A DNA stretch of 64,000 nt, from the NCBI GenBank assembly GCA_951812805.1, contig CATOSZ010000001.1, forward strand, positions 1,600,017 to 1,664,016. Direction: 5' to 3'. This DNA comes from an uncultured Alphaproteobacteria bacterium (GTDB lineage Bacteria; Pseudomonadota; Alphaproteobacteria; GCA-2731375). Both the position numbers and the translations under genes were made by a program. The notes under the pieces were generated by a model, which saw only the letters and a program-made list of their open reading frames with translations, was not told the DNA's origin and made no database searches. Of the stretch, positions 30,651 to 54,759 are shown piece after piece. Position 1 is the stretch's first letter. Every line of letters begins with the position of its first letter.

Positions 30651-32579
30651 ATGGCTGGACGCGAGCGGAAGCTGACAACGATCGTGGCGATCGATGTTGC
30701 CGGATACAGCCGGTTGATGCACGACGACGAGACGGGAACATTGGATGGCCTGAACCAGGTCCGCGCCACCCTGGACACGCTCGCCCTCACGCATTCCGGG
30801 CGGTTGTTCGGCTCGGCCGGAGATGGCTTTCTGCTCGAGTTCCCGAGTGTCGTCGAGGCCGTCGGTTTCGCGCTCCGCGCACAAACGCGCAACCAGGAGC
30901 ACCAGGCCGGGTCGTCCGAGGATCGGCGTCTGCTTCTGCGCATGGGCATCAATATCGGCGACGTGCTCGTCGAGGACGAGCAGTTGTTCGGAGATGGCGT
31001 CAATATCGCCTCGCGCCTCGAGGGGTTGGCCGAGCCGGGCGGTATCTGTCTCAGTCGTGCCGCGCGCGATCAGGTCCGTGATCGCCTCGACCTGGAGTTC
31101 GACGATCTCGGCGACGTCGAGGTCAAGAATATTGCCCGTCCGGTTCGCGCGTTTCATGTCCGGGCGGCGCCCGACGTCATCGCGGACCTGGCGCCGAGGG
31201 CTCCCGGCCATGTCGTGACACCGCCTCGACGGCTGCCGGTCCGGGTGCTGCTTGCCGTTGCCCTGTTGATTTTCGCCGCGGCGGCGATCGGGTTCTGGTG
31301 GACGGAACGACCCGACTTCGAGCCCCCGGATCCGTCCAAGTTTGCGTTTGCACTGCCCGAGAAGCCGTCGATCGTCGTTCTCCCGTTCGAAGATCTCTCC
31401 CGGGAAAAGGGTCAGGCCTACTTGGCGAACGGACTGACGGAGAACATCACATCGGTGCTGGCGGCGACGCCGGACATCTTCGTGATCTCCCGGGCCGCGA
31501 CGCCGTCGGCAAAAGGGACGACAGCGGAAATCCGGGAGGCAGCGGAACGCTATGGCGTTAGATATGTCCTGACGGGAAGCGTGCAACGCGAGGAGGATCG
31601 GCTGCGGGTTTCCGTCCAGCTTGCGGATACGCAGAACCGCCGTCATTTGTGGGCCGAGCGTTACGACCGCGAGCTTCGCGATCTGATGGTCCTTCAAGAT
31701 GAAATCGCCGACAAGGTCCTGACCGCGATGCAGGTCCGGTTGAGCCTGGGAAAGAGTGCCGCGACCTGGCGTGAGCAAGTCGGCACCCTGGACAACTATC
31801 TCTTGTTCCTCCGTTGCCGGGAAGAATTCCAGAAGTTCTCCAAACAGGGCCATGCGGATGCTAAAGCCAGCTGCGGCGAGCTCTATTCCCGGCTGCCCGA
31901 TGTCGCTATCGCCAACGACATGATGGCCTACCTGCTCTGGCAGCGTGTCCAATTCGGGCTCAGCAGCGATGCCCGCGGCGACATGGCAAAGTCGCGTGAG
32001 TTCGCCGAGCGGGCATTGTCGCTGGGCGGAGATCGTCGCCCAGCGACGCTGGTCCTGCTCGCGCAACTCGACGTGTACACGGGCAAGCATGATTCGGCGA
32101 TCGCCCATATCGACCGGGCCCTGGAACTCGCGCCCAATCACTCCACGGCTTACACCGTGGGCGGTTTTGTCAAACACGCAAGCGGTCAGGCGGCGGAGGG
32201 TGCCGCCCTGCTGAGGTTCGGCATGCGGATACAGCCTGTCTATCCGACCTTCGTCCCCCGGAACCTATCCTTTGCCCTGCTGGAAATGGGCGATTACGCG
32301 CAGGCGATGGACGTGGCCAAGGGTGTACTGCCGAGAGTGGCCGACAATCCACGAAACAAGGCGATTGTGCTGCGTCTCCTGGCCGCGGCGGCTGTGTTGG
32401 CTGGCGACGAGGACGCGGGGCGCCGCCACATGGACGAAATGCGGCGGATCGACCCGAAATTGACCGTTCAGGGTCAACGAAAACGCGCTTATTTCATGAA
32501 GAATCAAGACTTCGTCGAACGCTACGTCGGGGCTCTCCGTCGCGCCGGCCTGCCCGAGGCGCCGGAAGTCGAAAAATAG
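30651..32579 (+). CDS. Class III adenylate/guanylate cyclase-TolB_N-TPR protein (paralog 2 of 5)
   Basis: ATG 30651 after GGGGAGGGGG. Cyclase domain (IDVAGYSRLM…GDGFLLEF…GDGVNIASRLE), TM segment, TolB_N-like motif (PSIVVLPFEDLS…), TPR region. Confidence 0.85.
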   Translation: MAGRERKLTTIVAIDVAGYSRLMHDDETGTLDGLNQVRATLDTLALTHSGRLFGSAGDGFLLEFPSVVEAVGFALRAQTRNQEHQAGSSEDRRLLLRMGINIGDVLVEDEQLFGDGVNIASRLEGLAEPGGICLSRAARDQVRDRLDLEFDDLGDVEVKNIARPVRAFHVRAAPDVIADLAPRAPGHVVTPPRRLPVRVLLAVALLIFAAAAIGFWWTERPDFEPPDPSKFAFALPEKPSIVVLPFEDLSREKGQAYLANGLTENITSVLAATPDIFVISRAATPSAKGTTAEIREAAERYGVRYVLTGSVQREEDRLRVSVQLADTQNRRHLWAERYDRELRDLMVLQDEIADKVLTAMQVRLSLGKSAATWREQVGTLDNYLLFLRCREEFQKFSKQGHADAKASCGELYSRLPDVAIANDMMAYLLWQRVQFGLSSDARGDMAKSREFAERALSLGGDRRPATLVLLAQLDVYTGKHDSAIAHIDRALELAPNHSTAYTVGGFVKHASGQAAEGAALLRFGMRIQPVYPTFVPRNLSFALLEMGDYAQAMDVAKGVLPRVADNPRNKAIVLRLLAAAAVLAGDEDAGRRHMDEMRRIDPKLTVQGQRKRAYFMKNQDFVERYVGALRRAGLPEAPEVEK

Positions 32580-37467: not shown

Positions 37468-38124
37468 ATGACCAAAATCTGGGGCCGCAACGACGGCTCG
37501 AACGTCATCAAGGTAATGTGGTGCGTCGGCGAACTCGCCATCGCGCACGATCGGATCGACTGGGGCGGCGGCTTCGGCGGCAACGACGATCCCGAATACC
37601 GGGCCAAGAACCCGAACGGCCGCCTGCCGACCCTGGAAGAGGCCGACGGTTTCACGCTCTGGGAATCAGGCGCGATCATCCGCTATCTCTGCGCCAAACA
37701 CGCGGCCGGCACGCTCTATCCGGAAGATCCGCGGGCGCGGGCGGCGGCGGACAAGTGGATGGATTGGAGCTCGCTCAACTTCGCCGGCTTCAACGCGGCC
37801 TACCTCGACTATTACTTCCGGCTTTCGGAGGCCGAACGGGACCCGGAGGCGATTCCGCGCACCGTTGCCGCGCTCCGCCCCCAGCTGGAGATCCTGGAGG
37901 CCCATTTGGGCGAGAACGACTACCTCGGCGGTTCGGACCTGACGATCGCCGATTTTCCGGCCGGCTCCCTGATCGACCGCTGGATCCGCTGGACCCCGAA
38001 CCGGCCGGGCTATGCCAACGTCGAGGCCTATTACGATCGTCTCGCCGCCCGCCCGGCCTACCAGGCGCATGTCATCCAACCGAACGATGCCCGCACCGCC
38101 CAGGCCCAGGCGAGCTGGAGTTAA
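37468..38124 (+). CDS. Glutathione S-transferase
   Basis: GST N- and C-terminal domain pattern. 218 aa. Confidence 0.85.
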   Translation: MTKIWGRNDGSNVIKVMWCVGELAIAHDRIDWGGGFGGNDDPEYRAKNPNGRLPTLEEADGFTLWESGAIIRYLCAKHAAGTLYPEDPRARAAADKWMDWSSLNFAGFNAAYLDYYFRLSEAERDPEAIPRTVAALRPQLEILEAHLGENDYLGGSDLTIADFPAGSLIDRWIRWTPNRPGYANVEAYYDRLAARPAYQAHVIQPNDARTAQAQASWS

Positions 38125-38130
38125 TCGGGG

Positions 38131-39132
38131 TTAGATTCCCTCCTCGCGGAAGGGGCGGGCCAACAGGCGTTCGATCTCGCCGGCGAGATCGGCGCCCTCG
38201 TTGCAAATGCGGTGCACGGCCTGGGTGATCGGCATATCGAGGCCGAGCGTGTCGGCCCGCGCCGCCAGTGCCGCCGCGGTCGCCACACCCTCGGTGACGG
38301 CCCGGCGGGGCCCGAGGATCTCGTCGATGGTACGGCCCCGGCCGAGCGCGATGCCGAGGGACATGTTGCGTGACTTCTCGCTTCCACAGGTGAGCGCCAG
38401 GTCGCCCAGGCCGGCGAGCCCCATCAGGGTTTCGGCGCGCCCGCCCGCGGCCAGTGCGTACCGCATGATCTCCGCCAGGCCCCGGGTCATCAGGGCGGCA
38501 CGAGCGTTCTCGCCGAGGCCGGCGCCGGCGACGATGCCGCAGGCGATCGCGACGACGTTCTTGACCGCGCCGCCGATCTCGGTGCCGGTAACGTCGTCCG
38601 TCAGGTAGGGCCGGAAGTGCGGCAGGCCGATAGCGTCGCGAATGGCGCCGCCCTGTTCCCCGTCCGTGCAGGCGAGGGTGACGGCGGCGGGCAGCCCGCG
38701 CGCCAGCTCGTCCGCAAAGGTCGGGCCGGACAGGATGGCGATTCCGCGGCCGGGTAGCGCCTCGGCGACGACCCGGCTCATCGGCCGGCCCGAGGCCCGC
38801 TCGATCCCCTTGGCGGCGATCAGGACCGCGGCATCGGCGGCGATTTCGCCCGCCAGGCGCGCTGCGACCTCGCCCGTCGCCTGGGCGGGTGCGGCGAACA
38901 GCACGAGCTCACGCCCGGCCAGCACGGCGGGATCGGCACTCGCGTCGAGCCGCGGGTCGAGGTCGATTCCCGGCAGATAGACCTCGTTCCGTCGCGTCTC
39001 GACGATCGCCCGGGCGAGCTCGGCGTCCCGCGTCCAGAGCACGACATCGCGTCCCGCCGCCGCTAACAAAGTCGCCAGCGCCGTCCCGAAGGCACCTGCG
39101 CCGACAACGGCGATCGAGGTCATTCCTGCCAT
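38131..39132 (-). CDS. gpsA: NAD(P)H-dependent glycerol-3-phosphate dehydrogenase
   Basis: …IAVVGAGAFGTALA…GAVKNV…, typical GpsA length. ATG 39132 after GGGAGG. Confidence 0.9.
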   Translation of the reverse strand: MAGMTSIAVVGAGAFGTALATLLAAAGRDVVLWTRDAELARAIVETRRNEVYLPGIDLDPRLDASADPAVLAGRELVLFAAPAQATGEVAARLAGEIAADAAVLIAAKGIERASGRPMSRVVAEALPGRGIAILSGPTFADELARGLPAAVTLACTDGEQGGAIRDAIGLPHFRPYLTDDVTGTEIGGAVKNVVAIACGIVAGAGLGENARAALMTRGLAEIMRYALAAGGRAETLMGLAGLGDLALTCGSEKSRNMSLGIALGRGRTIDEILGPRRAVTEGVATAAALAARADTLGLDMPITQAVHRICNEGADLAGEIERLLARPFREEGI

Positions 39133-39190
39133 AGCACTACGCCTCCCATCCCGCCTTGTGCTGCATCCATGCGAATCTGCACGCTCCCTC

Positions 39191-40921
39191 TCATGCCGGC
39201 AGTCCGAGGCGACCCAGGACGTCGTCGACATGGGCCAGCAGCCCGGGGTCGTCATGCATGAAGAACTGCGGCAGATGACTTCGTCGGAACATCGGGGCGA
39301 AGCGCTGGAGTTCGGTCATAGCGGCCCGCGCCTCGTCGTGCCGGCCCAGGCATTCGAGGGCGTGGGCCCGGTAGATCCAGGTCATCTGAAAGCCGAGCCC
39401 GTGTTTCAGCAACCGCTCCGTGGCGGCGAGGCATTCGACGTGGCGCTCGAGGCACAGCAAGACGCGTGCATGGCCGTAGTGATACCAGCTCGGCGTCAAC
39501 GGATTGAGGTCGATCGCCGCCTCGAAGTGCTGGACCGCCTCGTCGTAGCGCCCGGCGTGCATCAGCGTGAAGCCGTAGATGGCGCGCGTGTCGGCGTTGC
39601 CGGGATGCAGGGTAAGGCCCCGCCGGGCGATCTCGACGCCGTCCGCATGGCGGTTCAACGCCGCCGCGAGCATGGCGTTCAGGCTGATCGCCGCCGGCTC
39701 GCTCTCGTTGAGGACAAGCGCCTTGCGGGCGTAGGTGTCGGCCTCCTCGAAGTGGGCCATCGCCTCCGGTCCCAGCGACAATCGACCTTCGTACATGACC
39801 GTCCAGCCGACCAGCGCCCAGGCGGTCGCATAGTCCGGGTCGATATCGATGGCACGCCGGGCCAGTTCCCGCGCCTTCGAGGCGGCGGCGGCGTCGAACT
39901 TCAGCCACAGGTCCCAGGCGGTGACGCAGTTTCGCCAGGCCTCGACATTGTTGGTGCCGCGGGACAACATCAGGGCCCGTTCGCCGTCGGTCAGGCGAAG
40001 GCGCAGGTTGGTGACGATTTCCTTGACGATCTCGTCCTGGATCTCGAAGACGTCGTCCATTCGCCGGTCGTAGCGTTCGGCCCAGAGATGGGTGCCGTCG
40101 GCGGCGTCGATCAGCTGTGCCGTCACCCGGATACGGCTGCCGCCGCTCCGCACGCTGCCCTCCAGCACATAGCGCACGCCGAGTTCCGTCGCGACCCGGC
40201 CAAGATCCGTCGCGTCGCCCTTGTAGGCGAAGCTCGAATTTCGGGCGATGACCTTGAGCCGGGAAACCATCGAAAGCGCGGTGATGACATCCTCGGCGAT
40301 GCCGTCGCAGAAGAATTCCTGTTCCGGGTCGCTCGACCTGTTGGCGAAGGGCAGCACGGCGATCGAGGGGATCTCGTCACGCGGCGCGACGGCCGGCATG
40401 GATCGCGCGGTTGTCTCCGGTGCCCAGCGCCAGACCCGGACGGGGCGCCGGATATTCTTCACCTCGTGCTCGCCATCGTCGCTGAAGACGGCATCGAGCT
40501 TGCCCCGGACCTGGTCGTGAACGGTGCCCGAGACGGCGATCCCGCCCGGTTCGGCCAATGCTTCCAGGCGGGCGGCGATGTTGACGCCCTCGCCCAGGAT
40601 ATCCTCGCCGTCGACGACGACGTCGCCGAGATTGATGCCGATACGGAACCGCATGCCGTCTGTCGTCGTCGCCATGGCCTTCTGGACCCCGAGCGCGCAG
40701 CCGACCGCGGCGACGGCGCTGGCGAACTCGAGCAGCATGCCGTCGCCCGTGGTCTTGACGATGCGCCCGCCGTTCGCGGCAATCGCCGGGTCGACATGGT
40801 CGCGCCGATGCGCCTTGAGGGTGCGGATCGTGCCCGCTTCGTCCGCCTCCATCAGCCCGGAATAGCCGACCACGTCCGCCATCATGATCGCCGCCAGACG
40901 GCGTTCCTCGCCGGCGCTCAC
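39191..40921 (-). CDS. Class III cyclase-TolB_N-TPR protein (paralog 5; third gene of tandem triplet)
   Basis: The probable GTG start at 40921 overlaps the upstream stop (GTGA), giving VSAGEERRLAAIMMADVVGYSGL… This parallels the N-termini of the two upstream paralogs. Confidence 0.75.
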   Translation of the reverse strand: MSAGEERRLAAIMMADVVGYSGLMEADEAGTIRTLKAHRRDHVDPAIAANGGRIVKTTGDGMLLEFASAVAAVGCALGVQKAMATTTDGMRFRIGINLGDVVVDGEDILGEGVNIAARLEALAEPGGIAVSGTVHDQVRGKLDAVFSDDGEHEVKNIRRPVRVWRWAPETTARSMPAVAPRDEIPSIAVLPFANRSSDPEQEFFCDGIAEDVITALSMVSRLKVIARNSSFAYKGDATDLGRVATELGVRYVLEGSVRSGGSRIRVTAQLIDAADGTHLWAERYDRRMDDVFEIQDEIVKEIVTNLRLRLTDGERALMLSRGTNNVEAWRNCVTAWDLWLKFDAAAASKARELARRAIDIDPDYATAWALVGWTVMYEGRLSLGPEAMAHFEEADTYARKALVLNESEPAAISLNAMLAAALNRHADGVEIARRGLTLHPGNADTRAIYGFTLMHAGRYDEAVQHFEAAIDLNPLTPSWYHYGHARVLLCLERHVECLAATERLLKHGLGFQMTWIYRAHALECLGRHDEARAAMTELQRFAPMFRRSHLPQFFMHDDPGLLAHVDDVLGRLGLPA

Positions 40922-42654
40922 ACCGCCATCCCCGCGTCGGTCAGGACCCCGGCCAGCCGTTCCAGCATCTCCGGGTCGTTCAGCAGGAAGAATTGCGGCA
41001 GGTGGCCGACCCGCAGCATCGGTGCCAGCTGCGACGCGCGGGTCATCGCCTCGCGCGCCTCGGCGTCGCGGCCCTGGCATTGATAGATATAGGCACGGTA
41101 GAGCCAAGCCTGATGATGGTCCGGCTGGGCTTCCAACAGGCCGTCGATCGCTTGAAGGGATTCGTCCAGCCGGCCGAGGCAGAGCAGCGCGCGGGCATGG
41201 CCGTTGCGATACCAGACCGGCGGCAGCGGATTGAGCGCGAAGGCGGATGCGAAGTGCACCAGCGCCGCCTCGTAGCGTCCGCCATGCAGCAGGGCGAAGG
41301 CGAGAAAGCCGCGGGCATCCGCATTGCTCGGCAGGTGCGAGAGCGCTTCTTCGGCGATGGCCACGGCCTCGACGAAATTACCGTCCGAAAGCGCTACCAT
41401 CGTGGCGATGCCGGCGGTGACGCTGTTGCGTGCGTCGAGCGCGATCGCCCGTTCGGCGCAGTCGCGCGCGGTCGCAAAACTTTCCCGCGACGTCTCCGCC
41501 ACGGTCATCCGGCCCTCGAACCAGTGGGCGAAGGCCAGCGTCCCCCAGGCCGCCGCATAGTCGGGGTCGAGCGCGATGGCCCGCTCCGCGTGCTCGCGCG
41601 CCCGCAGGTGGCCGGAAGCGTTGTGCTTGATGTATTCGTCCATGGCACGCTGGCAGTGTTGCCAGGCCTCGATATTGTCGGTGCCGCGGGAGAGCATCAG
41701 GGCCTGCTCGCCGTCGGTCAGGCGGAGACGCAGGTTGGTGACGATTTCCTTGACGATCTCGTCCTGGATCTCGAAGACGTCGTCGAGGCGGCGATCATAA
41801 TGCTCGGCCCAGAGGTGGCCGCCGTCGGTGGCGTCGATCAGCTGCGCGGTGACCCGGATGCGGCTCCCGCCGGTCCGCACACTGCCTTCCAGGACGTAGC
41901 GCACGCCCAATTCCTCGGCGACGCGGCGGATGTCGGGCGAGGTGCCCTTGTAGGCGAAGCTGGAATTGCGCGCGATGACCTTGAGGCGGGCGATCTTCGA
42001 CAGCGCGGTGATCACGTCCTCGGCGATGCCGTCGCAGAAGAATTCCTGTTCGGGATCGGCCGACATGTTGGCGAACGGCAGCACGGCGATCGAGGGATCG
42101 TCGCCCGTTGCGCGGGCGCTCGGCTCGGCCCCGGGCGCCGTCGGGGCCTCCGCACTCCAGCGCCAGACCTGGACGGGGCGCTGGATGTTCTTCACCTGTT
42201 GCGCGCCGTCGTCCGTGAAGACCGCGTCCAGTTTGCCCTGGACCTGGTCGTGAACGGTCCCCGAGACGGCGATCCCGCCCGGATCGGCCAATGCTTCCAG
42301 GCGGGCGGCGACATTGACGCCTTCGCCCAGGATATCCTCGCCGTCGATGACGATGTCGCCGAGATTGACGCCGATGCGGAAGCGCATGTCGCCCGCCCTA
42401 TCGGCCATCGCCCGCTGGATCCACAGCGCGCAGTCGACGGCGGCCACGGCGCTGGCGAATTCGACCAGCATGCCGTCGCCCGTGGTCTTGACGATGCGTC
42501 CGCCGTGCGCGTGGATCGCCGGGTCGACGATATCGCGCCGGATGGCCTTCAGGCGCCGGATCGTCCCCGCCTCGTCCACCTCCATCAGTCCGGAATAGCC
42601 GACGACGTCCACCGCCAGGATCGCCGCCAGCCGACGTTCCACACCCCCGCTCAT
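40918..42654 (-). CDS. Class III cyclase-TolB_N-TPR protein (paralog 4; middle gene of tandem triplet)
   Basis: ATG at 42654 overlaps the upstream stop (ATGA): MSGGVERRLAAILAVDVVGYSGL… The rest of the 1087-aa ORF in the track is an upstream read-through. Confidence 0.8.
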   Translation of the reverse strand: MSGGVERRLAAILAVDVVGYSGLMEVDEAGTIRRLKAIRRDIVDPAIHAHGGRIVKTTGDGMLVEFASAVAAVDCALWIQRAMADRAGDMRFRIGVNLGDIVIDGEDILGEGVNVAARLEALADPGGIAVSGTVHDQVQGKLDAVFTDDGAQQVKNIQRPVQVWRWSAEAPTAPGAEPSARATGDDPSIAVLPFANMSADPEQEFFCDGIAEDVITALSKIARLKVIARNSSFAYKGTSPDIRRVAEELGVRYVLEGSVRTGGSRIRVTAQLIDATDGGHLWAEHYDRRLDDVFEIQDEIVKEIVTNLRLRLTDGEQALMLSRGTDNIEAWQHCQRAMDEYIKHNASGHLRAREHAERAIALDPDYAAAWGTLAFAHWFEGRMTVAETSRESFATARDCAERAIALDARNSVTAGIATMVALSDGNFVEAVAIAEEALSHLPSNADARGFLAFALLHGGRYEAALVHFASAFALNPLPPVWYRNGHARALLCLGRLDESLQAIDGLLEAQPDHHQAWLYRAYIYQCQGRDAEAREAMTRASQLAPMLRVGHLPQFFLLNDPEMLERLAGVLTDAGMAV

Positions 42655-44402
42655 GCCGGCAGCCCGGCCCGGCCCAGGGCGTCCGTGAAGTGGACCAGCA
42701 ATTCGGGGTCGTCGTGCAGGACGAGATTTGGCAAATGTCCCAGGCGGAATAGGGGGGCCAGGCGCACAACCTCCGCCACGCAGGCTCGCGCATCGTTCGA
42801 TCGGCCGAGGGATTCGAACGCGTAGGCGCGGTAGATCAACACCGTCTGATGACTGCCCTCGAGTTCCAGGGCCCGGTCGGTGGCGGCCAGCGCCGCCTCG
42901 TAGCGTTCGAGGCCGAGCAAGGCGCTCGCGTAGCCGCCGTGGTACCAGCTGGGCGTGATGGGGTTGAGGGAAATCGCCGCCTCGAAATGAAGCGCCGCGT
43001 CCTCGTAGCGCGCGGCCTGCGCCAGGGCCAAGGCGTAGTAGGCGCGCATATCGGCGTTGCCCGGATGATGGGCGAGGCCGCGCTCGGCAATGTCGACGCC
43101 GTCGCCATATCGCCCGAAAGCCACGGCCACCATGGCCTCGAGGCCGATGGCCATGGGCACCGTCGCATCCAGCGCAAGGGCCCGTTGCACATATCGGGCC
43201 GCCTGCTCGAACTTCTCCGTCGCCGCTGCGCCGAGCGATGTCCGTGCCTCGAACCAGAAGGACCATCCGGCCAGCGCATGGGCGACGGCATAGTCGGGAT
43301 CCAGCGCGATCGCTCCCTCGGCCAACGCCCGGGCACGGAGGTTTGTCGCAACCTCGAATTTCAGGAAAAGGTCCCAGGCCGTGGCGCAGTTCTGCCAAGC
43401 CTCGACGTTGCGGGTGCCACGGGCGATCAACAGCGCGCCGTCGCCATCCGAGAGGCGGACGCGCAGGTTGGCGACGATTTCCTTGACGATCTCGTCCTGG
43501 ATCGCGAAGACGTCGTCCATCCGCCGATCGTAGCGTTCGGCCCACAAGTGTGCGCCGTCCGTCGCGTCGATCAGCTGCGCCGTCACGCGGACACGACCGC
43601 CCCCGCTCCGCACGCTGCCCTCCAGCACGTGGCGCACGCCGAGGTCCTCGGCGACGCGGCGGATATCCGGCGATGTGCCCTTGTAGGCGAAGCTCGAATT
43701 GCGCGCGATGACCTTGAGGCGGGAGATCTTCGAGAGGGCGGTGATCACGTCCTCGGCGATGCCGTCGCAGAAGAACTCCTGTTCCGGATCGGCCGACATG
43801 TTGGCGAAGGGCAGCACGGCGATCGAGGGCGTCGCCGTTGTGGGCGCGTCCGCCACGGCGGGCTCCACCGCCAACATCTCCGGTTCCCAGCGCCAGATGT
43901 GGACCGGGCGGGCGATGTTCTTGACCTTGTGCATGCCACCGTCGGCCCAGGCGAGGTCGAGGCGGTCGCGGATCTGGCGGTGCGCGTCGTCCGAAATGGC
44001 GATGCCGCCGGGTGTGGCCAGGGCTTCGATACGGGCCGCGATGTTGACCCCATCGCCGAGCAGGTCCCCGCCCTCGGCGACGACGTCGCCGACATGAATG
44101 CCGACCCGGAACTCGATCCGCCGGTCCGCGTCGACGGCCCGGTTGCGTTCCGCCATGGCGTTCTGTGCGGCCGTGACGCACTTCACGGCGTCGACTGCGC
44201 TCGGGAATTCCAGCAGCAGGCTGTCGCCGGCGGTGTTGGCGATACGCCCGCCGTGGGTGTCGACGAGGCCGTCGATCAGCTCGCGCCGGTGCGCGCGCAA
44301 GGCGGCCAGCGTCGCCTCCTCGTCCGCGCCGACGAGACGCGAATAGCCGGCAACGTCCGCCGCCACGATCGCCGCAAGTCGTCTCACCGTGTTCTCCGCC
44401 AT
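42651..44402 (-). CDS. Class III cyclase-TolB_N-TPR protein (paralog 3; first gene of tandem triplet)
   Basis: 583 aa: MAENTVRRLAAIVAADVAGYSRL…, TolB_N motif PSIAVLPFANMSADPEQEFFCDGIAEDVITALSK, TPR tail. Confidence 0.85.
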   Translation of the reverse strand: MAENTVRRLAAIVAADVAGYSRLVGADEEATLAALRAHRRELIDGLVDTHGGRIANTAGDSLLLEFPSAVDAVKCVTAAQNAMAERNRAVDADRRIEFRVGIHVGDVVAEGGDLLGDGVNIAARIEALATPGGIAISDDAHRQIRDRLDLAWADGGMHKVKNIARPVHIWRWEPEMLAVEPAVADAPTTATPSIAVLPFANMSADPEQEFFCDGIAEDVITALSKISRLKVIARNSSFAYKGTSPDIRRVAEDLGVRHVLEGSVRSGGGRVRVTAQLIDATDGAHLWAERYDRRMDDVFAIQDEIVKEIVANLRVRLSDGDGALLIARGTRNVEAWQNCATAWDLFLKFEVATNLRARALAEGAIALDPDYAVAHALAGWSFWFEARTSLGAAATEKFEQAARYVQRALALDATVPMAIGLEAMVAVAFGRYGDGVDIAERGLAHHPGNADMRAYYALALAQAARYEDAALHFEAAISLNPITPSWYHGGYASALLGLERYEAALAATDRALELEGSHQTVLIYRAYAFESLGRSNDARACVAEVVRLAPLFRLGHLPNLVLHDDPELLVHFTDALGRAGLPA

Positions 44403-44504
44403 GGCCCGACTTTAGCGAAAGCGATGCCAGACCGGAATAGCGTGCGATGTTTGCGGGCGTCGGCTAGGCTAACGGCCGGTTTCTGGCAAGCTAGGGAGGC
44501 AACG

Positions 44505-44951
44505 ATGGGGCTGCAGCGGGTAGGGCATGTGGTGTTGAAGATGCGGGACCTGGACAAGGCGAAGCACTTCTATCGCGATATCCTGGGCATGGAAATCACG
44601 GACGAGCGCGAGGGCTTCGGCGTCTTTTTCCGCTTCTCCGACTATCACCACGATCTCGCGGTCTTCAAGGTCTCGGACGGCGCGGCGGCACCGGAAGCCG
44701 ACCAGGTCGGCCTCAGCCATCTCGCCATCGTCGCCGACGGTTGGGACACGGTGCGCGCCTATCACGCCAAATTCGTCGAGAACGACATCGAGATCGTTCG
44801 CACGGTGGACCACGGCGTCACCCGCTCGGTCTATGCCAAGGATCCCGAAGGCAACGAGGTCGAGATCTATTGCGAGGTGCCCGAGGTCCGCTGGCAGGAC
44901 GTCGATACCATCATCGTCGCCGATCCGATCGACATGGAGGCCGCCGACTAG
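44505..44951 (+). CDS. VOC-family protein (glyoxalase/bleomycin resistance/extradiol dioxygenase fold)
   Basis: MGLQRVGHVVLKMRDLDKAKHFYRDILGM… RBS AGGGAGG. Confidence 0.8.
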   Translation: MGLQRVGHVVLKMRDLDKAKHFYRDILGMEITDEREGFGVFFRFSDYHHDLAVFKVSDGAAAPEADQVGLSHLAIVADGWDTVRAYHAKFVENDIEIVRTVDHGVTRSVYAKDPEGNEVEIYCEVPEVRWQDVDTIIVADPIDMEAAD

Positions 44952-46723: not shown

Positions 46724-46895
46724 TGCGCGTTTCGGAAAGTCCCGGACACCGATTACGGAAAGTCCTGGCCAGAGATTTCAGTAAGTCGCGGCCAGTGATT
46801 CCGGAAAGTCCCGGACAGCATCACGGGGCGATCTGAGTTCAGCTTTCGGGTGCGCCGTCTCGGCGTCTACCTCTTGGCTTTTGCCGGGAGGGGAC

Positions 46896-48449
46896 ATGCC
46901 CAGACGGAAGCAGACGAGACGAACGACGGTGAGAGATGCACGAACGATCCTGCGGCTGACGCATGACCAAGGCCTCTCGGCGCGAGAGGTGGCGGAACGG
47001 CTGAAGGTCTCCAAGACGACAGTGTCGACCTATTTGCTGCGGGCCCGCGAGGTCGGCCTTACCGCCTGGCCGCTGCCGGCGGAATACGAGGACGACGCGG
47101 TCCTGCAAGAGACGCTGTTCCGCCGCATGGGCCGGCCCCCGCGCGACAGGTGCGAGCCGCACTGGCCGACGGTCGCGGCCGAGCTGAAGCGCAAGGGGGT
47201 GACGCTGACCCTGCTCTGGCAGGAATACCGCGCCTCACATCCCGATGGCTACGGCTACACCTGGTTCTGCGAAGCCTTCACGGCGTTCAAGCGGCGCACC
47301 GGCGCCACCTGGCGCAACCGCCACGAGGCCGGTGCGGTCATGCAGACCGATTATGCCGGCCAGACGGTGGACATCGTCGACCCCGAGACCGGCGAGGTGC
47401 ACGACGCGCAGATCTTCGTCGCCGTGCTGGGCGCTTCCTCGCTCACCTTCGCCACCGCCAGCCTGACCCAGCGCCTGCCCGACTGGGTCGCCGGACAATG
47501 CCGGGCGCTCGCCTACTTCGGCGGCGTGCCCAAGAGCATCGTCTGCGATAACCTCAAGGCCGGCGTCGCCAAGCCGCTCTGGTTCGAGCCGACCCTCAAC
47601 CCGACCTTCGCCGCGCTCGCCGAGCACTACGACACCACCGTCCTGCCGACCCGGGTCCGCAAGCCGCGCGACAAGGCCAAGGTCGAAGTCGCCGTCCAGG
47701 TCGTCGAGCGCTGGATCCTGGCAAGACTGCGCAATACGCGCTTCTTCTCCCTCGACCAGCTCAACCGGGCGATCCGCGACCTCCTCGAGGAGCTCAACGA
47801 GCGGCCCATGCGCAACCTTGGAAAGAGCCGGCGCCAGATGTTCGAGGCCATCGAGCGCGAGGCCCTGGCACCCCTGCCGACGACGCCCTTCGAATATGCC
47901 GAATGGAAGACCGCCAAGGTCCATTCCGACTATCACGTCGACGTCGAGCGCAGCTTCTACTCCGTGCCGCACGGCCTGATCGGCCGCAAGGTCCAAGTCC
48001 GGCTCACTCACCGCACGGTCGAGATCTTCCACAACCACAAGCGCGTCGCCAGCCATCTCCGCCGCTCACCGCATGGCGGCCATGCCACGATCCCGGCCCA
48101 CATGCCCAAGGCGCACCAGCGCTATGCCGAGCGAACGCCACAAAGCCTGATCGACCAGGCCAGCCGCATCGGCCCCAACGCCGCCCTCCTGGTCGAGCGG
48201 ATGATCCGCGATCGGCCCCATCCCGAGCAAGGCTATCGCAGCGCCATGGGCGTCTTGTCGCTCGCCCGCCGATACGAACCGGAACGCGTCGAGGCCGCCT
48301 GCGCACGCGCGCTCACCATCAACACGACCAGCTACTCATCGCTCGCCGCCATCCTCAAGTCCGGCCTCGATCGCACACGCCCCGAGCGCGAACCGCTTCT
48401 GCCGCTGCCGCCACACACCAACATCCGCGGCCCCGGCTACTACCGATAA
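46896..48449 (+). CDS. istA: IS21-family transposase IstA
   Basis: HTH N-terminus plus DDE integrase core (…[33 protein letters not shown]…). ATG 46896 after GGGAGGGG. Confidence 0.9.
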
Positions 48450-48466
48450 CCAGGAGAAGACACCTC

Positions 48467-49243
48467 ATGCTGACACACCCGACCCTCGACCAGATGCAGG
48501 CCCTCGGCTTCAAGGGCATGGCAGAGGCTTACCGCGACATGGCCGAGCGAGGCCAATCATCGGAATTGAACCGCGAGGACTGGCTCGCCCTCATGCTCGA
48601 CCGCGAGGCCGCCACCCGCGCCGACAAGCGCCTCGCCAACCGCCTCAGACAGGCCAGGCTACGCTTCCCCGAGGCCTGCATCGAGGACATCGACTTCGCC
48701 GCCGAACGAGGCCTCGACCGCCGCGCCGTCCTCTCTCTCGCCCAGGGCGTCTGGCTCAAGGCACACGAGAACCTCATCGTCACCGGCCAGACCGGAACCG
48801 GCAAGACATGGCTCGCCTGTGCCATCGCCCATCAGGCCGCCAGGCTCGATCATTCCGTCCTCTACGTCCGCATGCCCAGGCTCTTCGAGGACCTCGCCAT
48901 GGCCCGCCTCGACGGCCGGCTGCCCCGCCTGATCGACCGCCTCGCCCGGGTCCAGCTGCTCGTCCTCGACGACTGGGGAACCCATGGCCTGACCGACCGC
49001 CAGCGCCTCGATCTCCTGGAAATCTGCGAGGAACGATACCACCGACGCTCAACCCTCATCACCGCGCAGATCCCCGTGACCGCCTGGCACGACCTGATCG
49101 GCGAGGCCACCATCGCCGACGCCATCCTCGACCGCGTCATCCACAACGCCCACCGCATCGGCTTGAAAGGCGACAGCATGCGAAAGAAGAAATCGACGAC
49201 CGACTTGACCCAGCCAACCACAACGGAAAACAATCCCGACTGA
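48467..49243 (+). CDS. istB: IS21-family helper ATPase IstB
   Basis: Walker [14 protein letters not shown]. Walker B LLVLDDWG. Confidence 0.9.
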
Positions 49244-49529
49244 CGGCAACAAGGCACCCGAAGCCAAACTCCCGGAACCGGCCGGGACTTTATGAAATCG
49301 GTGGCCAGGACTTACTGAAACCGCCGTCCGGAACTACCGAAATCCGCAGCCCGCCACGGAGGAAGAACTTTTCCCGTTCCTTGAAGGTCCTGGTGTCCCC
49401 GAAGGGGAGCGGTGTCCTGGGCCCGCGCACGCATCGAATCCAGTGTCGCCGCCTCGACGATCGCAGCCAGACGTCCTGCATCCAGAGCGGCGTCGAAAAT
49501 CCCCGCCAAAACTCTGGTGTCCCCAGATT

Positions 49530-51461
49530 TCAGACAGGATTATACCCGGGTATAATCGGGTAGGAGGGGTCCTCTCGGCGCCCCTCCTCCCACACCACCG
49601 GGCATACGTTCTACGTACCACGGCGGTTTCCGGTCAGTTGTAACGCGAGATACCTATCGGTCATAGGGACAAGCCCCTGGCCTTCGAACCAAGCCAGGGT
49701 CATGGCTTCGGTGGCTTGATAGCTGAGGGACTTGCGCCACCAGCCCTTGCCGGAGAGAGCCAAGATCCAGGCCCGCCGCTCGGGCACCCCGAGGCTTCGC
49801 AGGAAGTCCGCTTGCGCCTTGGTGCGCTTGCATTGCTTGAGCCGGACACAGCGCAGTTTTCGACGGATCCAGCCGTCGAGACGCCGAAGCTGGCTCGCGC
49901 AACGGGCATGGCGGAAGTACGTCACCCAGCCGGCGAGGAAGCCGTTGAGTTCGCCGACCATGCGCGCGAGGCTGATGCCCCGGTTGCGCCGGGTGATCTC
50001 GCGAACCCGTTGCTTCGCCCGCCGCAGGCTTTGCGGCGCGATGCCGAGCGATCCATCCGACAACAGCCGGTGGCCGAGGAACTTGCGGTCCCCGGCCGGA
50101 GCGACGGCACTTTTCTCCTGGTTGACCCGCAGATGCAACCTGCCTTGGAGGAATTCGGCGACCGAGGCCATCACCCGCTCGCCCGCCGCTCGAGTGCGAA
50201 CGTAGATGTTCACGTCGTCGGCATAACGGCAGAAGCTATGGCCCCGCGCCTCCAGCATCCGGTCCAGATCGTCCAGTAGAAGATTGGCCAGCAGCGGCGA
50301 CAGCGGGCCGCCTTGCGGCGTGCCCTCATGGCGCCGGATGCAGACGCCGGTCTGCATCATCCCCGCTTGCAGAAAGCGACGGATGGTGCGCAGCAGGCGC
50401 TTGTCGCCAATCCGCCCAGCCAGTCGGGACATCAGAATGTCGTGATTGACCCGGTCGAAGAACGCCTCCAGATCCAGGTCGACCACAATCCCGCGGCCTT
50501 CGGCAACGTACTTACCCGCTTGGGCCAGAGCATCGTGAGCGCTCCGGCCCGGACGGAAGCCGAAACTCGAAGCCGAGAAACCCGGATCGAGGATCGGCTG
50601 AAGGACGTGCAGGATGGCTTGCTGAACCAGACGATCCAGCACCGTCGGGATGCCCAATTGCCGCATCCCGCCTCCCGGCTTGGGGATCGAGACCCCCTTC
50701 ACCGGTTGGGGCCGATAGTCGCCTCGCGACAACGCCGCCACCAGCGCGTCCTTGTGATCGACGAGCCAGAGCCGCAGGTCTTGGATGGTCATCCCATCCA
50801 CGCCCGCCGACCCCTTGTTCGCCTTCACCCGCTTGTAGGCTTGGTTCAGGTTGGCGGAACTCACCACCCGTTCCATCAGGTCTTGCGTCAAGGCTCGTTG
50901 CCGGTCCAACGCCGTGCGCACTTGTGGCACCTCGCAGGCTCCAGTTCCGGTTCCGCCGTCACCAGGGGCCTCGGGGCGCAGCGCCTTCATCAGGGCCTCG
51001 TCGAAAAGGTCCAATTGATAGCCACCGCCTTGCTGCCGCTCCATGCTCATCGAGTTGGTCCAGACTGCTCCTTGCTATTCGGATTCGGCCCTTCGGCGCC
51101 TCGCGGCCCCTACTATGGCCTCGGCTGACTTCTCCACCGCCGTCGCTCCCCGTCGCCGGGTCGCTACTCGGTTCCCCCGAGAGCGCTGGAGATCTCCCTG
51201 GGTAAAACCTTGATCTTTCCGCCGGTCGCGGCCGGATTTACCAATGCGATGTCCGAACGACTATCGGGCATCGCCATCCATTGCTGGCTTACCCCATCGC
51301 ACCGGCCTGATATCCGGTTTCTGTTCGTCCGCTCCGGATTTTGCCTCCGGCTTCCTCCCCACCCCACCTCGCGGCGACGCAGTTGCCTTCAGCTAACGGT
51401 TCCGGTCGTTACGGCCCGTAGAGAACTTCCATCTCCTAGATCAACGCCATGCCAGGCACAC
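49530..51461 (-). mobile_element. Group II intron (class C-like, about 1.9 kb) inserted immediately 3' of a terminator hairpin; 3' boundary approximate
   Basis: The minus-strand 5' end GUGUG at 51461-51457 directly follows the hairpin plus U-run. A 479-aa RT/maturase ORF sits in domain IV. GNRA-capped D5-like hairpin at 49558-49596. 20-bp palindrome at 49538-49557. Confidence 0.6.
49611..51050 (-). CDS. Group II intron-encoded reverse transcriptase/maturase
   Basis: RT domains 0-7 (…AYKRVKANKGSAGVDGMTI…FGFRPGRSAHDAL…YADDVNIYV…) and X/maturase region. 479 aa. Confidence 0.9.
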   Translation of the reverse strand: MSMERQQGGGYQLDLFDEALMKALRPEAPGDGGTGTGACEVPQVRTALDRQRALTQDLMERVVSSANLNQAYKRVKANKGSAGVDGMTIQDLRLWLVDHKDALVAALSRGDYRPQPVKGVSIPKPGGGMRQLGIPTVLDRLVQQAILHVLQPILDPGFSASSFGFRPGRSAHDALAQAGKYVAEGRGIVVDLDLEAFFDRVNHDILMSRLAGRIGDKRLLRTIRRFLQAGMMQTGVCIRRHEGTPQGGPLSPLLANLLLDDLDRMLEARGHSFCRYADDVNIYVRTRAAGERVMASVAEFLQGRLHLRVNQEKSAVAPAGDRKFLGHRLLSDGSLGIAPQSLRRAKQRVREITRRNRGISLARMVGELNGFLAGWVTYFRHARCASQLRRLDGWIRRKLRCVRLKQCKRTKAQADFLRSLGVPERRAWILALSGKGWWRKSLSYQATEAMTLAWFEGQGLVPMTDRYLALQLTGNRRGT

Positions 51462-51488
51462 AAGAAAAGGGGCCGCCGAAGCGGCCCC
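51462..51488 (-). terminator. Rho-independent terminator (GGGGCCGC-UUCG-GCGGCCCC + UUUUCUU) serving as the intron target
   Basis: Perfect 8-bp GC stem with a UUCG loop and a U-run on the minus strand. The intron 5' end abuts it. Confidence 0.55.
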
Positions 51489-51680
51489 TAACGATGTCCT
51501 CGATAACCTCACCATTTCCCGGAACATTGGGCGGATGCTCCCGATGTCCATGATGCCGTCAGCAAGTTCATCCTCCTTCAACCACGAAGTTGGTGGAAGA
51601 TGCGCCCTCGGCGATTCCCTGTCAAGGGCAAATGTGAGGCCGTCGGAGATATCGCCCGGTCCCGCCCCGGTCGATCAACC

Positions 51681-53081
51681 ATGCAACAGCACAACACCTC
51701 CCACACCAGCTCCACCCCCCGTCCCTGGCTCGCCAACGAGAGCCTCAACCCGAGCGGCGGCCGGGAACGCTCCCCGGTCCACAAGCAGGCCGAGAGGGGC
51801 GCGGAGAGCTTTCTCGGCCTGCCCGAGGGCATCAAGCGCTTCGAGATCCTCGCCGTCCTGCGCCGGGTCGGCCTCGAGGACGGCTGGACACGCGGCCTGA
51901 TCAGCCACTACGAGCTGCTGCTCACCTACACCAGGGAGAGCGACTGGGCGCCGGGCGGACGACCCGTCGTCTGGCTCTCGGTGGAGAAGGCGGCCCAACA
52001 GCTCGGTATCTCCCCCCGCCAGGTCCGGCGCAACGAGCGGCGGATGATGGAACTGGGCGCCCTGGCCTTCCGTGATTCTCCCAACCACCGCCGCTTCGGG
52101 CGCCGCGACGGCGAGGGCCGGATCGTCGAGGCCTATGGCCTGGACCTCTCGCCCGCCGCCGCCCTGCTGCCCCGCCTGGCACGGCTGGAACAGACCCTGG
52201 TCCGGAACAGGGCCGAATGGCGCCGGCTCAAGCGGGAGATCGGCACGGCCCGCAAGGGCATCCGCGCCGCCATCGAATGGGCCCTCGAACACCAGCGCGT
52301 GAGCGACGAGATCGCCGAGACGCTCTGGCAGGGATTACAGGGCTTCGCAGAGCGGATCCGCGCCGAAACACCCCTCGATGGCTTGCGTCAACGACTGGCC
52401 GAACTCCGCGCCTTCGACGCCCGTCTGTGGCGTCTGATCGGGGAAGATCGGCCCGTGGACCCGCCCGGGGACAATTCCCCCAACGACGACAATGACTTGC
52501 CGGCCAATATGTCCGCCACGGGGGACCGATATGTCCGCCCTGGCGGACATCCGTGTCCGCCACCATTAGATGACAATACAAACCTAGTTCCTGATCAAGG
52601 AATACCGGTAAGCGGCGGCGAAGCGGCCGCCGGGCCGGCAAGGGACGAAGGGGGCGCGGCGGTGGCGGCTCACCGGCACCCGCCGGGGCGCGGCGGAGAG
52701 GAAGGGGGCCGGCACGGGGATGTGCCCCGGCCCCGGGTGTCGTGGGACAACCTGCTGGCGATCCTGCCGCCGGGCCTGCGCCATCGGCTGCCGCTCGATG
52801 AACATCCCTCCTGGTCCTCGTTGATCGACGCGGCGGGCGAGCACGCCGCCGAACTCGGCATCTCGCCCCATGCCTGGGGGGAGGCCTGCCGGGCAATGGG
52901 CCGGGAGGGGGCGGCGATGGCGGTGATCGTCGTCGCCGCCAAGCACCACCGGGGCGAGGTGCGCCGCCCCGGCGGCTACTTGCGCGCACTGACGGCGCGG
53001 GCCGGGACGGGGGAGCTGCATCTCGCCCGCTCCGTGTACGGCCTGCTCAACACAACCACGGGAAAGGAACAGAACCGATGA
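51681..53081 (+). CDS. repC: Replication initiator protein, RepC-like (HTH)
   Basis: …WLSVEKAAQQLGISPRQVRRNERRMMELGALAFRDSPNHRRFGRRDGEGRIVEAYGLDLSPAAALLPRL… matches the RepC family core. Followed by parA-parB with ATGA overlap. Confidence 0.7.
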   Translation: MQQHNTSHTSSTPRPWLANESLNPSGGRERSPVHKQAERGAESFLGLPEGIKRFEILAVLRRVGLEDGWTRGLISHYELLLTYTRESDWAPGGRPVVWLSVEKAAQQLGISPRQVRRNERRMMELGALAFRDSPNHRRFGRRDGEGRIVEAYGLDLSPAAALLPRLARLEQTLVRNRAEWRRLKREIGTARKGIRAAIEWALEHQRVSDEIAETLWQGLQGFAERIRAETPLDGLRQRLAELRAFDARLWRLIGEDRPVDPPGDNSPNDDNDLPANMSATGDRYVRPGGHPCPPPLDDNTNLVPDQGIPVSGGEAAAGPARDEGGAAVAAHRHPPGRGGEEGGRHGDVPRPRVSWDNLLAILPPGLRHRLPLDEHPSWSSLIDAAGEHAAELGISPHAWGEACRAMGREGAAMAVIVVAAKHHRGEVRRPGGYLRALTARAGTGELHLARSVYGLLNTTTGKEQNR

Positions 53082-53803
53082 CGAAGACCCACAACATTCA
53101 CCCCTTCCCGCGCCCCCTGGCGCGGAATACACAACCCCCGGGCGGACTTCGCCGGTTGGCGGTGCTCTCGCGCAAGGGCGGGGCGGGCAAGACGACGCTG
53201 GCGGTCAATCTGGCGGTGGCGGCGCAAGCGCGCGGTCTCCCCTCGGCGGTGCTGGACGTGGACCCGCAGGCCTCGGCCAGCGCCTGGGCGGAGGTCCGTG
53301 GCGCCACATCGCCGGTGGTCCGGCATTGCCCGGCGCGTCATGTCGAGCGTGTGCTGGGCGAGGCGGCCGAGGACGGCATCGCCCTGGCGCTGATCGACAC
53401 GGCGCCGCACGCGGAGGGGGCGGCGTTGACGGCGGCGCGGGCGGCCGATCTGGTGGTCATTCCCTGCCGCCCGGCGTTGTTCGATCTCTGCGCGGTCACC
53501 GACAGCCTGGACATGGCCCGGCTGGCAAATGTTCCGGCGGTGGCGGTGGTGAACGCGGCGCCGGCGCGGGGCCGGTTGGCGGCGGAGACGGCGGCGGCGC
53601 TGGCGAACCTGGGCCTGGACGCGGTGGCGCCGCCTCTCGGACAGCGCGCCGCCTTCGTGCATGCCCTGACGGCGGGCCAAGGCGTGGTGGAGTACGCGCC
53701 CCGTGGCAAGGCGGCGGGGGAGGTTCTGGCGCTGCTGGATCGATTGTTGGCCCATCCCGCCGTGCGGGCGACGGCGAAGAACAACGAAGGGAGGCTGGCA
53801 TGA
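53078..53803 (+). CDS. parA: ParA-family partition ATPase
   Basis: Deviant Walker A KGGAGKTT. 241 aa. Confidence 0.9.
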   Translation: MTKTHNIHPFPRPLARNTQPPGGLRRLAVLSRKGGAGKTTLAVNLAVAAQARGLPSAVLDVDPQASASAWAEVRGATSPVVRHCPARHVERVLGEAAEDGIALALIDTAPHAEGAALTAARAADLVVIPCRPALFDLCAVTDSLDMARLANVPAVAVVNAAPARGRLAAETAAALANLGLDAVAPPLGQRAAFVHALTAGQGVVEYAPRGKAAGEVLALLDRLLAHPAVRATAKNNEGRLA

Positions 53804-54759
53804 CGAAACAACGGAACTTGGCGGAAGCGTTCCGCTCGCTATCGCCGGAAGCAAGGACGGGCAATGGGGAAGGCCAAGCCGAACAGAGCGAACTGGAAAC
53901 GGCGCGTCCCCGGCGGACGCTGTCGGTGGCGCTGGCGGCGATCCGGGTCGAGGACCGCTTGCGGCTGGGTCTCGATGAAGCGAAGATCGAGACCATTGCC
54001 GCCTCGATGCGGGACATCGGCCTGCAATCGCCGGTGCTGCTGCGCCCCTGGCGGGAGGCGGATACGACGCGTCCCCATGCCTGGGGGGCGTCCGACGCGG
54101 GGGTGTTCGCCCTGGTGGCGGGCGCGCACCGGTTGGCGGCGGCGCGGGTGTTGGGCTGGACGGAGATCGAGGCGATGATCGTGGACGGCACGCCGGACGA
54201 AGTGCGTTTGATGGAGATCGACGAGAACCTGGCCCGGGCCGAGTTGACGGCGCTGGACCGGGCGCGGTTCCTGGCGGCGCGCAAGGCGGTGTACGAGCGG
54301 CTGTTTCCCGAAGCATGCAATGGGGGAGACCGCAAGAGCATTGAATTCGCGGAGAAAAATCGGATGGAAAACATTTCCATCCGATCCTTCGCCGACGATG
54401 CGAGCGCGAAGATGGGGCTGACGTCGCGCGCGGTTCGCCGCGCGGTGGCGATCGGCGAAGGCATCGACGACGAGGCCGCCGAAGCGCTTGCCGGGACGGC
54501 ATTGGCGGACCGGGAGGGGGATCTGCACCGCCTGTCGAAACTGTCGCGCGCGCGCCAGCGCGTGGTGGCGGGAGTTTGCGCGTCGATGCCGGGGTCGGCG
54601 ACGCTGGACAAGGCCTTGTCGGCGATCGACGGCAAGGCGGCGAGCGGCAGGGCGAGGTCATCGGAGGCGGCGCAGCTGGAGGCGCTACGCCGGGCCTGGC
54701 GGAAGGCGTGTCCCGAAGCCCGGCGGCGGTTCCGGGATGAGGTGTGCCGGGAGGCGTGA
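53800..54759 (+). CDS. parB: ParB-family partition protein
   Basis: ParB/Srx N-terminal domain plus HTH (…LQSPVLLRPW…, …GLTSRAVRRAVAIGE…). ATG 53800 after GAAGGGAGG. ATGA overlap with parA. Confidence 0.8.
   Translation: MTKQRNLAEAFRSLSPEARTGNGEGQAEQSELETARPRRTLSVALAAIRVEDRLRLGLDEAKIETIAASMRDIGLQSPVLLRPWREADTTRPHAWGASDAGVFALVAGAHRLAAARVLGWTEIEAMIVDGTPDEVRLMEIDENLARAELTALDRARFLAARKAVYERLFPEACNGGDRKSIEFAEKNRMENISIRSFADDASAKMGLTSRAVRRAVAIGEGIDDEAAEALAGTALADREGDLHRLSKLSRARQRVVAGVCASMPGSATLDKALSAIDGKAASGRARSSEAAQLEALRRAWRKACPEARRRFRDEVCREA

Follow-up and report, generated by a model that had tools for sequence, protein, structure and literature searches.

What do three overlapping cyclase genes of an uncultured alphaproteobacterium encode, and what is the history of their array? 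The genes lie on the minus strand of the 64,000-nucleotide (nt) stretch analyzed here (the window; positions 1,600,017 to 1,664,016 of contig CATOSZ010000001.1, assembly GCA_951812805.1). We call these tandem genes A, B, and C, and two distant plus-strand paralogs in the window D and E. A, B, and C encode, in this order, a nucleotidyl cyclase domain of class III, a domain resembling the N-terminal domain of TolB (TolB-N-like), and a tetratricopeptide repeat (TPR) region of about seven hairpins. We consider it probable that they are three functional, presumably co-transcribed paralogs of a soluble class III cyclase family that is regulated by its TolB-N-like/TPR part, in an array that recombines within the central domain. 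The catalytic domains, which are of the Rv1900c/Ma1120/3mr7 type, would dimerize head to tail and make cAMP, and the cytoplasmic TolB-N-like and TPR module would regulate this activity by binding some protein or ligand. Different inputs probably act on the three enzymes, because the TPR regions are the most divergent part between copies (40-54% identity). The 4-nt overlaps between the genes probably couple their translation, co-transcription with the downstream gpsA gene is also probable, and the conserved central domain would act as a patch of homology at which the copies recombine, reassorting cyclase and TPR modules.

Domain architecture and divergence

A, B, and C lie head to tail with the ATGA and GTGA stop/start overlaps described in the original prediction, which had been made from the sequence alone. 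Their coordinates are collected in Table 1. The cyclase domains of all five paralogs scored above the cut-off of 21.9 bits for the Pfam family Guanylate_cyc (PF00211; A, 38.1; B, 32.1; C, 39.5; D, 29.8; E, 32.5), and TPR_2, TPR_14, TPR_19, and other TPR families exceeded their Pfam cut-offs as well. For the central domain, we modeled 158 residues of B with AlphaFold2 (AF2), obtaining a predicted local distance difference test score (pLDDT) of 77.6. A Foldseek search of the PDB with this model returned N-terminal domains of TolB as the top matches (E values of 1e-7 to 1e-5, query-normalized TM-score [TMq] of 0.57-0.66, root mean square deviation of 2.6-5 Å), followed by FlgT, PelC, GNA1162, LpoB, and the periplasmic domain of CadC (3ly7). 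The label TolB-N-like is thus justified by the predicted fold and not by Pfam membership. The order of cyclase, TolB_N, and TPR put forward originally therefore holds, with Pfam matches for the first and last parts and a predicted fold for the middle one, where the Pfam TolB_N score stays below threshold.

An AF2 model of full-length B, built on 46 homologs, reached a pLDDT of 84; in it, residues 1-166 form the cyclase domain, 170-184 a disordered linker, 188-307 the central domain, and 328-573 a set of 14 helices that make up about seven TPR-like hairpins, mostly with a pLDDT above 85. Searching with this model gave matches to single domains only and no solved structure with all three. The cyclase domain matched PDB entry 3mr7 with an E value of 1e-51 and Ma1120 and Rv1900c with 1e-14, at target-normalized TM-scores (TMt) of about 0.9 in Foldseek. 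NCBIfam held no model for the A-C family, every match being far below its cut-off, and in their sources homologs are named 'adenylate cyclase' or 'TolB-like protein/...'.

A tblastn search with each domain found exactly five family members in the window, leaving D and E, both listed in the original prediction, as the sole others. The amino acid (aa) identity is 61.2% between A and C, 62.3% between B and C, and 54.9% between A and B, so that the identity of more than 60% claimed at first applies to two of the three pairs. A-C are 39-42% identical to D and 32-34% to E. At the nt level, A, B, and C share 66-72% identity, and the 'long identical DNA stretches' exist but are modest, the longest exact runs being 56 nt (B-C), 38 nt (A-B), and 31 nt (A-C). 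The synonymous divergence (dS) among the three genes is 0.35-1.2, and the ratio of nonsynonymous to synonymous divergence (dN/dS, or omega) is 0.12-0.58 between paralogs and 0.17-0.30 between orthologs over every domain except the linker between the cyclase and central domains. As judged by these ratios, every domain of A, B, and C is shown to be under purifying selection. On sequence grounds, the array of three genes is real and its members are functional. The linker itself (approximately 43836-43886 in A, 42103-42156 in B, and 40376-40423 in C, minus strand) was the sole segment with a dN/dS above 1 (1.1-2.5, over few codons); it is predicted to be disordered and occupies the place of the transmembrane helix of D and E.

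Mosaic ancestry of the array

The similarity between the copies changes along the genes. In sliding windows of nt identity, the cyclase regions of B and C are 80-94% identical, and that of A is only 55-75% identical to either. At the start of the central domain A and B are 93-96% identical, and in the TPR region identity is highest between A and C (60-76%) and lowest for A-B and B-C (40-74%). The patterns of informative sites differ between segments (chi-square 82.6, p = 5e-17), and none of 200 permutations reached the observed maximum chi-square.

We built domain-wise neighbor-joining trees that included the genes X1 and X2 from the metagenome locus L031 and Y1 and Y2 from the locus L030. L031 has the same flanks as the window (glyoxalase ... 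gpsA, glutathione S-transferase [GST], CoA-transferase, SGL) and only two cyclase genes. In the cyclase tree, A paired with X1 and joined Y1 in an alpha clade, and the pair of C and X2, together with B and Y2, formed a beta clade, with 100% bootstrap support. In the TPR tree, again with 100% support, B paired with X1 and joined Y1 (type b), and the pair of C and X2 joined A (type c). Hence, A combines alpha with c', B beta with b, and C beta with c; in L031 and L030, the first gene combines alpha with b.

C has its ortholog in X2 (80% aa identity), and the GTGA junction is common to both. The first ∼700 nt of X1 match A (83-96% nt identity), and the remainder matches B (77-98%). Of the 514 discriminating sites, 436 fit a single breakpoint within alignment columns 560-700, where the conserved central domain has its 5' edge. 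As read from the aligned genes, X1 is shown to be an A-5'/B-3' chimera whose joint lies within the conserved central domain, which demonstrates unequal crossing-over, and the syntenic locus has three genes in the window and two in L031. The comparison of these sequences thus shows that the copies recombine within the conserved central domain, shuffling cyclase and TPR modules and changing copy number. Gene conversion or recombination among the copies, which the original prediction had raised, is supported by the mosaic identity, the site-pattern test, the domain trees, and the chimera.

The cyclase domain of B and the TPR region of A both branch outside the ortholog pair of C and X2, which puts the three-gene state earlier than the divergence from L031. 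We favor a history in which L031 lost one repeat unit by a crossover between A and B. The dS of the cyclase domain is 0.35 for B-C versus 0.52 for B-X2, and the lower value between the paralogs suggests some later gene conversion between B and C. The protein database contained no full-length ortholog of A above 62% identity, and a scan of genome contigs found no close ortholog, the best match being 45-52% identical.

Two observations concern the ends and remains of repeat units. At 39170-39194 (minus strand), the 18 nt that run from the stop codon of C onward (ATGAGAGGGAGCGTGCAG) resemble the start of B at 42634-42654 (ATGAGCGGGGGTGTGGAA), with 13 of 18 positions matching by eye, and L031 carries a similar tail 3' of X2. 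The tail after C has the look of a remnant, either of the boundary between repeat units or of a fourth copy since lost. In L030, the second tandem copy (11749-13490) consists of two open reading frames (ORFs), being interrupted by a stop codon and by a short duplication (RVGRKPP occurs in two frames). The TPR part of this copy has only ∼30% identity to A, B, or C, and the copy may be decaying or may stem from an error of assembly.

Neighboring paralogs with this soluble architecture are also present in Bradyrhizobium altum, B. lablabi, and several alphaproteobacterial metagenome-assembled genomes (MAGs), and the loci L030, L031, and L032 have the same 4-nt overlaps as the window genes. Contig JAAHTH010000006.1 of an alphaproteobacterial MAG (L048/L049, 2151-9436) carries four tandem genes of 585-592 aa each that are of the Lys type at the substrate-specifying position discussed below, with a period of ∼1832 nt and intergenic gaps of ∼70 nt. 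The amplification was called striking in the original prediction, but tandem pairs and a four-gene array of the same soluble family place A-B-C among the not very unusual cases, as a tidy but ordinary expansion of a signaling family. An obligate pairing of Asn-type with Lys-type genes, which was near-universal in the first ten loci, failed on wider sampling (17 Asn-type singletons, Lys-Lys arrays), and we rejected it as a rule.

Catalytic sites, cellular location and competing readings

We placed the catalytic residues by alignment to 3mr7, Ma1120, and Rv1900c and by motif mapping. The metal-binding Asp pair is D16/D60 in A, B, and C, D17/D61 in D, and D15/D58 in E. The transition-state Asn and Arg (VNxAxR) are N120/R124 in A, N114/R118 in B and C, N121/R125 in D, and N118/R122 in E. 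All four residues are thus intact in each of the five paralogs, with no sign of the general degeneration that would have spoken against active cyclases. The substrate-specifying pair varies, being K56/D107 in B and C, N56/D113 in A, N57/D114 in D, and G54/Q111 in E. In Ma1120, Lys and Asp are the ATP-specifying residues, and the pair is conserved in adenylate cyclases (PMC4215837). The alignment places an Asn at the Lys position of Rv1900c as well. The Asn motif RIANTAGDS is conserved in the orthologs and relatives of A across the alpha clade, which marks it as a stable variant and not as decay. In Rv1900c the Asn at this position is reportedly dispensable for activity (N342/H402).

Class III cyclases must dimerize, and the alternative that fares best is a heteromer, in which Asn-type A pairs with Lys-type B or C in an asymmetric dimer with one canonical and one variant or regulatory site, like mammalian C1/C2. 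Translational coupling would then set the stoichiometry, and B and C would be alternative sensor partners. Consistent with such pairs, the window, L030, L031, and L032 each have an Asn-type gene first and a Lys-type gene next, and in every case the two overlap by 4 nt. Bradyrhizobium and MAG loci (L004-L007) have pairs in the order K-then-N or divergent N/K pairs, and the Asn motif is conserved across the alpha clade. However, Asn-type genes are mostly singletons (all three that were looked up individually and 14 more in a metagenome sample), Lys-Lys arrays exist, including the four-gene array of L048/L049, and A keeps the full catalytic set, so that nothing forces a heterodimer; Asn-type Rv1900c is said to be active as a homodimer. 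We therefore regard the pairing of A with B or C as unlikely, and the same holds for a combinatorial heteromeric cyclase that has the TolB-N-like domain as common transducer and recombination hinge.

Somewhat less probable still is that A-C are guanylate cyclases, or inactive scaffolds, instead of adenylate cyclases. The cyclase-TPR protein XC_0250 of Xanthomonas makes cGMP (PMC3770947), and A, D, and E are without the ATP-specifying Lys, but B and C hold the Lys/Asp pair of adenylate cyclases (PMC4215837) and the Glu typical of guanylate cyclases replaces the Lys in none of the five paralogs. The retention of the Asp pair, the Asn, and the Arg, with an omega well below 1, argues against scaffolds as well.

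The original prediction described a membrane-anchored cyclase with a periplasmic sensor. This description suits D and E, in which the stretch between the cyclase domain and the central domain is ∼47 residues longer and includes a hydrophobic helix (Kyte-Doolittle hydropathy of 2.0 and 2.5). Because of this one transmembrane helix, the TolB-N-like/TPR module of D and E is predicted to be periplasmic. In A, B, and C, ∼47 residues are missing exactly at the position of the helix, and the linker there has 27-29 residues and is rich in Pro, Ala, and Glu, with a hydropathy of -0.5 to 0.2; no transmembrane helix separates their catalytic and sensor parts. Windows of 19 residues with a hydropathy above 1.6 are confined to the inside of the cyclase fold or a TPR helix. 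Because residue 5 is already the start of the cyclase domain, no room is left for a signal peptide, and the ORF of gene A cannot be extended upstream. Since there is neither a transmembrane helix nor a signal peptide, and the catalytic domain needs cytoplasmic ATP, A, B, and C are predicted to be wholly cytoplasmic. The hydrophobic linker was absent from all 55 scorable homologs of less than 700 aa (72 such homologs were listed), and the soluble form of ∼580 aa is, by its sequences, a large and widespread alphaproteobacterial subfamily. A reading of A-C as membrane-anchored receptor cyclases that sense external signals through a periplasmic TolB-N-like and TPR part can draw on the helices of D and E and on the solved structures with the central-domain fold, all of which are periplasmic or envelope-associated proteins, but it is already contradicted by the sequence of A-C and we consider it highly improbable.

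The weakest alternative, an assembly artefact in which one gene was spuriously expanded to three or copies were mis-joined, has nothing but the repeat structure itself in its favor and is practically excluded, because A, B, and C differ at 28-34% of their nt with the dS values given above, each copy is under purifying selection (omega below 0.6) and is matched in L031 by an ortholog or orthologous half of its own, and the independent assemblies L030, L031, and L032 share the overlapping tandem layout.

Several points weigh against soluble, TolB-N-like/TPR-regulated cyclases that recombine in their central domain. The TolB_N (PF04052) scores of A (13.8 bits), C (17.2), and E (21.0) stay below the cut-off of 22.4, and the scores for FlgO in Pfam (14-18 bits) stay below 22.6. 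The central-domain fold has no verified cytoplasmic precedent among solved structures. In X1, a run of C is lengthened by 2 nt (+2); this could be a real frameshift, making X1 a pseudogene, or a long-read sequencing error. The alpha-plus-b first gene of L030 complicates the favored direction of copy-number change, under which it would need a second deletion or a different course of events. Finally, the low dS of the central domain could in part reflect constraint on synonymous sites instead of gene conversion.

Genomic context and related systems

The GC content of the window is 65-70%, giving long spurious ORFs on both strands. The frames of A, B, and C are backed by a high GC content at third codon positions (GC3) on the minus strand and by their translation; the product of B is identical to the database protein P0001. 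We dismissed long plus-strand ORFs over A-C (641, 610, and 700 aa) as antisense artefacts that the high GC content produces. Downstream of C, the ATG of gpsA at 39132 lies 58 nt past the stop codon and is preceded by GGGAGG, and beyond gpsA follow a GST gene, two CoA-transferase genes, and an SGL gene. We found no terminator-like site within 37900-44700, which covers A through gpsA, and A-B-C-gpsA are therefore likely to be on one transcript. The marks of an operon are present (overlapping stop and start codons, a common strand, no terminator between the genes), and coupling and co-transcription are predicted from them. A promoter scan of the region found none, and an Rfam scan of the A-C region found no RNA family.

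Table 1. Coordinates of the cyclase genes, their domains and junctions, and other features of the window
Feature	Position	Strand	Description
Gene A	44402-42651	-	ATG start, 583 aa; Asn56 alpha-type cyclase, TolB-N-like, c'-type TPR (from ORF, translation, Pfam, residues, domain trees)
Gene B	42654-40918	-	ATG start, 578 aa; Lys56 beta-type cyclase, TolB-N-like, b-type TPR
Gene C	40921-39191	-	GTG start, 576 aa; Lys56 beta-type cyclase, TolB-N-like, c-type TPR
A stop/B start overlap, ATGA	42651-42654	-	Junction reads GGCATGAGC; same overlap in L030, L032
B stop/C GTG start overlap, GTGA	40918-40921	-	Junction reads GCGGTGTGAGC; kept in L031
A cyclase domain, aa 1-172	43887-44402	-	Asn at Lys position
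B cyclase domain, aa 1-166	42157-42654	-	Canonical K/D/N/R and two metal-binding Asp; 3mr7 TMt 0.90, 53% identity
C cyclase domain, aa 1-166	40424-40921	-	Canonical residues; 80-94% nt identity to B cyclase
A central TolB-N-like domain, aa 190-335	43398-43835	-	
B central TolB-N-like domain, aa 185-330	41665-42102	-	AF2 pLDDT 77.6; Foldseek match to TolB N-terminal domain
C central TolB-N-like domain, aa 183-328	39938-40375	-	
A TPR region, c' type	42654-43382	-	aa identity 54% to C TPR, 42% to B TPR
B TPR region, b type	40921-41649	-	80% aa identity to 3' half of L031 X1
C TPR region, c type	39194-39922	-	81% aa identity to L031 X2
Crossover zone in A, A-like to B-like switch in L031 chimera	43702-43842	-	A-B 90-96% nt identical
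Matching crossover zone in B	41969-42109	-	
Paralog D	6816-8750	+	644 aa, Asn-type cyclase; predicted transmembrane helix aa 192-210 (~7389-7445)
Paralog E	30651-32579	+	642 aa, Gly/Gln at substrate-specifying positions; predicted transmembrane helix aa 197-215 (~31239-31295)
gpsA, NAD(P)-dependent glycerol-3-phosphate dehydrogenase	38131-39132	-	Pfam; downstream of C, same order in L031
Glyoxalase-family gene	44511-44951	+	Divergent from A across 108-nt intergenic region; neighbor kept in L030, L031
IS21 istA/istB	46881-49243		
Group II intron reverse transcriptase/maturase	49611-51050	-	Rfam D1-D4 matches at 51088-51378
RepC	51600-53081		Followed by ParA-like ATPase
ParA-like ATPase	53078-53803		
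Large serine recombinase	54842-56647	-	
DDE transposase	58791-59336		

A cluster of mobile elements lies just beyond the A-C locus (46881-59336), with a shift in both GC skew and AT skew at 48-52 kb; the cluster looks like an integrated plasmid-like element. Elsewhere in the window, an ORF of 488 aa (11929-13395, plus strand) has an avidin-family domain at its C terminus (aa 386-476, E value of 3e-12) and may encode an avidin-like bacterial protein that binds biotin, in fusion with a long N-terminal part that has no Pfam match. Genes for a GGDEF diguanylate-cyclase-domain protein (25540-26346, plus strand) and a stand-alone response-regulator receiver (27347-27793, plus strand) lie between D and E. 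Among the window ORFs scanned, there was no gene for a cyclic-nucleotide-binding or Crp-like protein. Three ORFs had no Pfam match at E ≤ 1e-5 (5373-6674, minus strand, 433 aa; 22735-24108, plus strand, 457 aa; 60833-63421, plus strand, 862 aa), and those of 433 and 457 aa have a coding-like GC3.

Soil and marine Alphaproteobacteria have greatly expanded sets of class III cyclases, and an input is known for almost none of the paralogs. The locus provides a clean natural example in which output (catalytic) and input (TPR) halves have been swapped and copies gained or lost. The TolB-N-like/TPR module is usually assumed to be periplasmic, and a large subfamily, in which we found no experimentally studied member, appears to use it in the cytoplasm; what is likely a habit in annotation is thereby corrected, and the partners to look for would be proteins or ligands in the cytoplasm. 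No major concept is changed, and the value of the result lies mainly in annotation and in the choice of biochemical targets. A search of the literature for the TolB-like, cyclase, and TPR architecture and for COG5616 returned nothing relevant.

Among known systems, the closest solved relative is 3mr7 from Silicibacter/Ruegeria pomeroyi, a structural genomics entry with 53% identity and a TMt of 0.90 that shares the motifs RIVKTTGDGML and GD.VNVAARLE and the VW.W tail; its structure covers the catalytic domain only, and we know of no functional study of it. The catalytic domains of Rv1900c (LipJ, Mycobacterium tuberculosis; PDB 1ybt/1ybu) and Ma1120 (M. avium; 4wp9) are also alike (E values of ∼1e-14, TMt of 0.85-0.9), B and C sharing the Lys/Asp pair of Ma1120 and A and D the Asn of Rv1900c. 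Unlike A-C, Rv1900c carries an alpha/beta-hydrolase and no TolB-N or TPR part, and a His replaces the catalytic Asn that is kept in A-E. The predicted fold of the central domain resembles the TolB N-terminal domain, FlgT, PelC, LpoB, and GNA1162 (E value of 1e-7, TMq of 0.6-0.66), but these are envelope proteins, whereas A-C are predicted to be cytoplasmic, lack a beta-propeller, and have a sub-threshold TolB_N score. The periplasmic sensor of CadC and regulators of the HilA/EilA type similarly attach an alpha/beta domain of the TolB-N fold and a helical-repeat subdomain to an output domain, and weak NCBIfam matches to the CadC and HilA profiles cover the same residues, far below the cut-offs. 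Their output is DNA binding and not a cyclase, and the CadC module is periplasmic, so that the analogy is one of architecture and not of family membership.

By architecture, A-C can also be likened to XC_0250 of Xanthomonas campestris (886 aa), which has an N-terminal class III cyclase, an uncharacterized region, and TPRs, and whose signaling role is experimentally proven (PMC3770947). It differs from A-C in making cGMP and in being ∼300 aa longer (PMC3770947). Finally, the presence of many paralogs recalls the cyclase expansions of Rhizobiales, with 37 class III cyclases in the genome of Bradyrhizobium japonicum and 28 in that of Sinorhizobium meliloti (PMC1183210), and tandem pairs of the A-C architecture are found in B. 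altum and B. lablabi. The A-B-C array differs from these expansions in that its recombination history can be read with the help of a syntenic two-gene relative.

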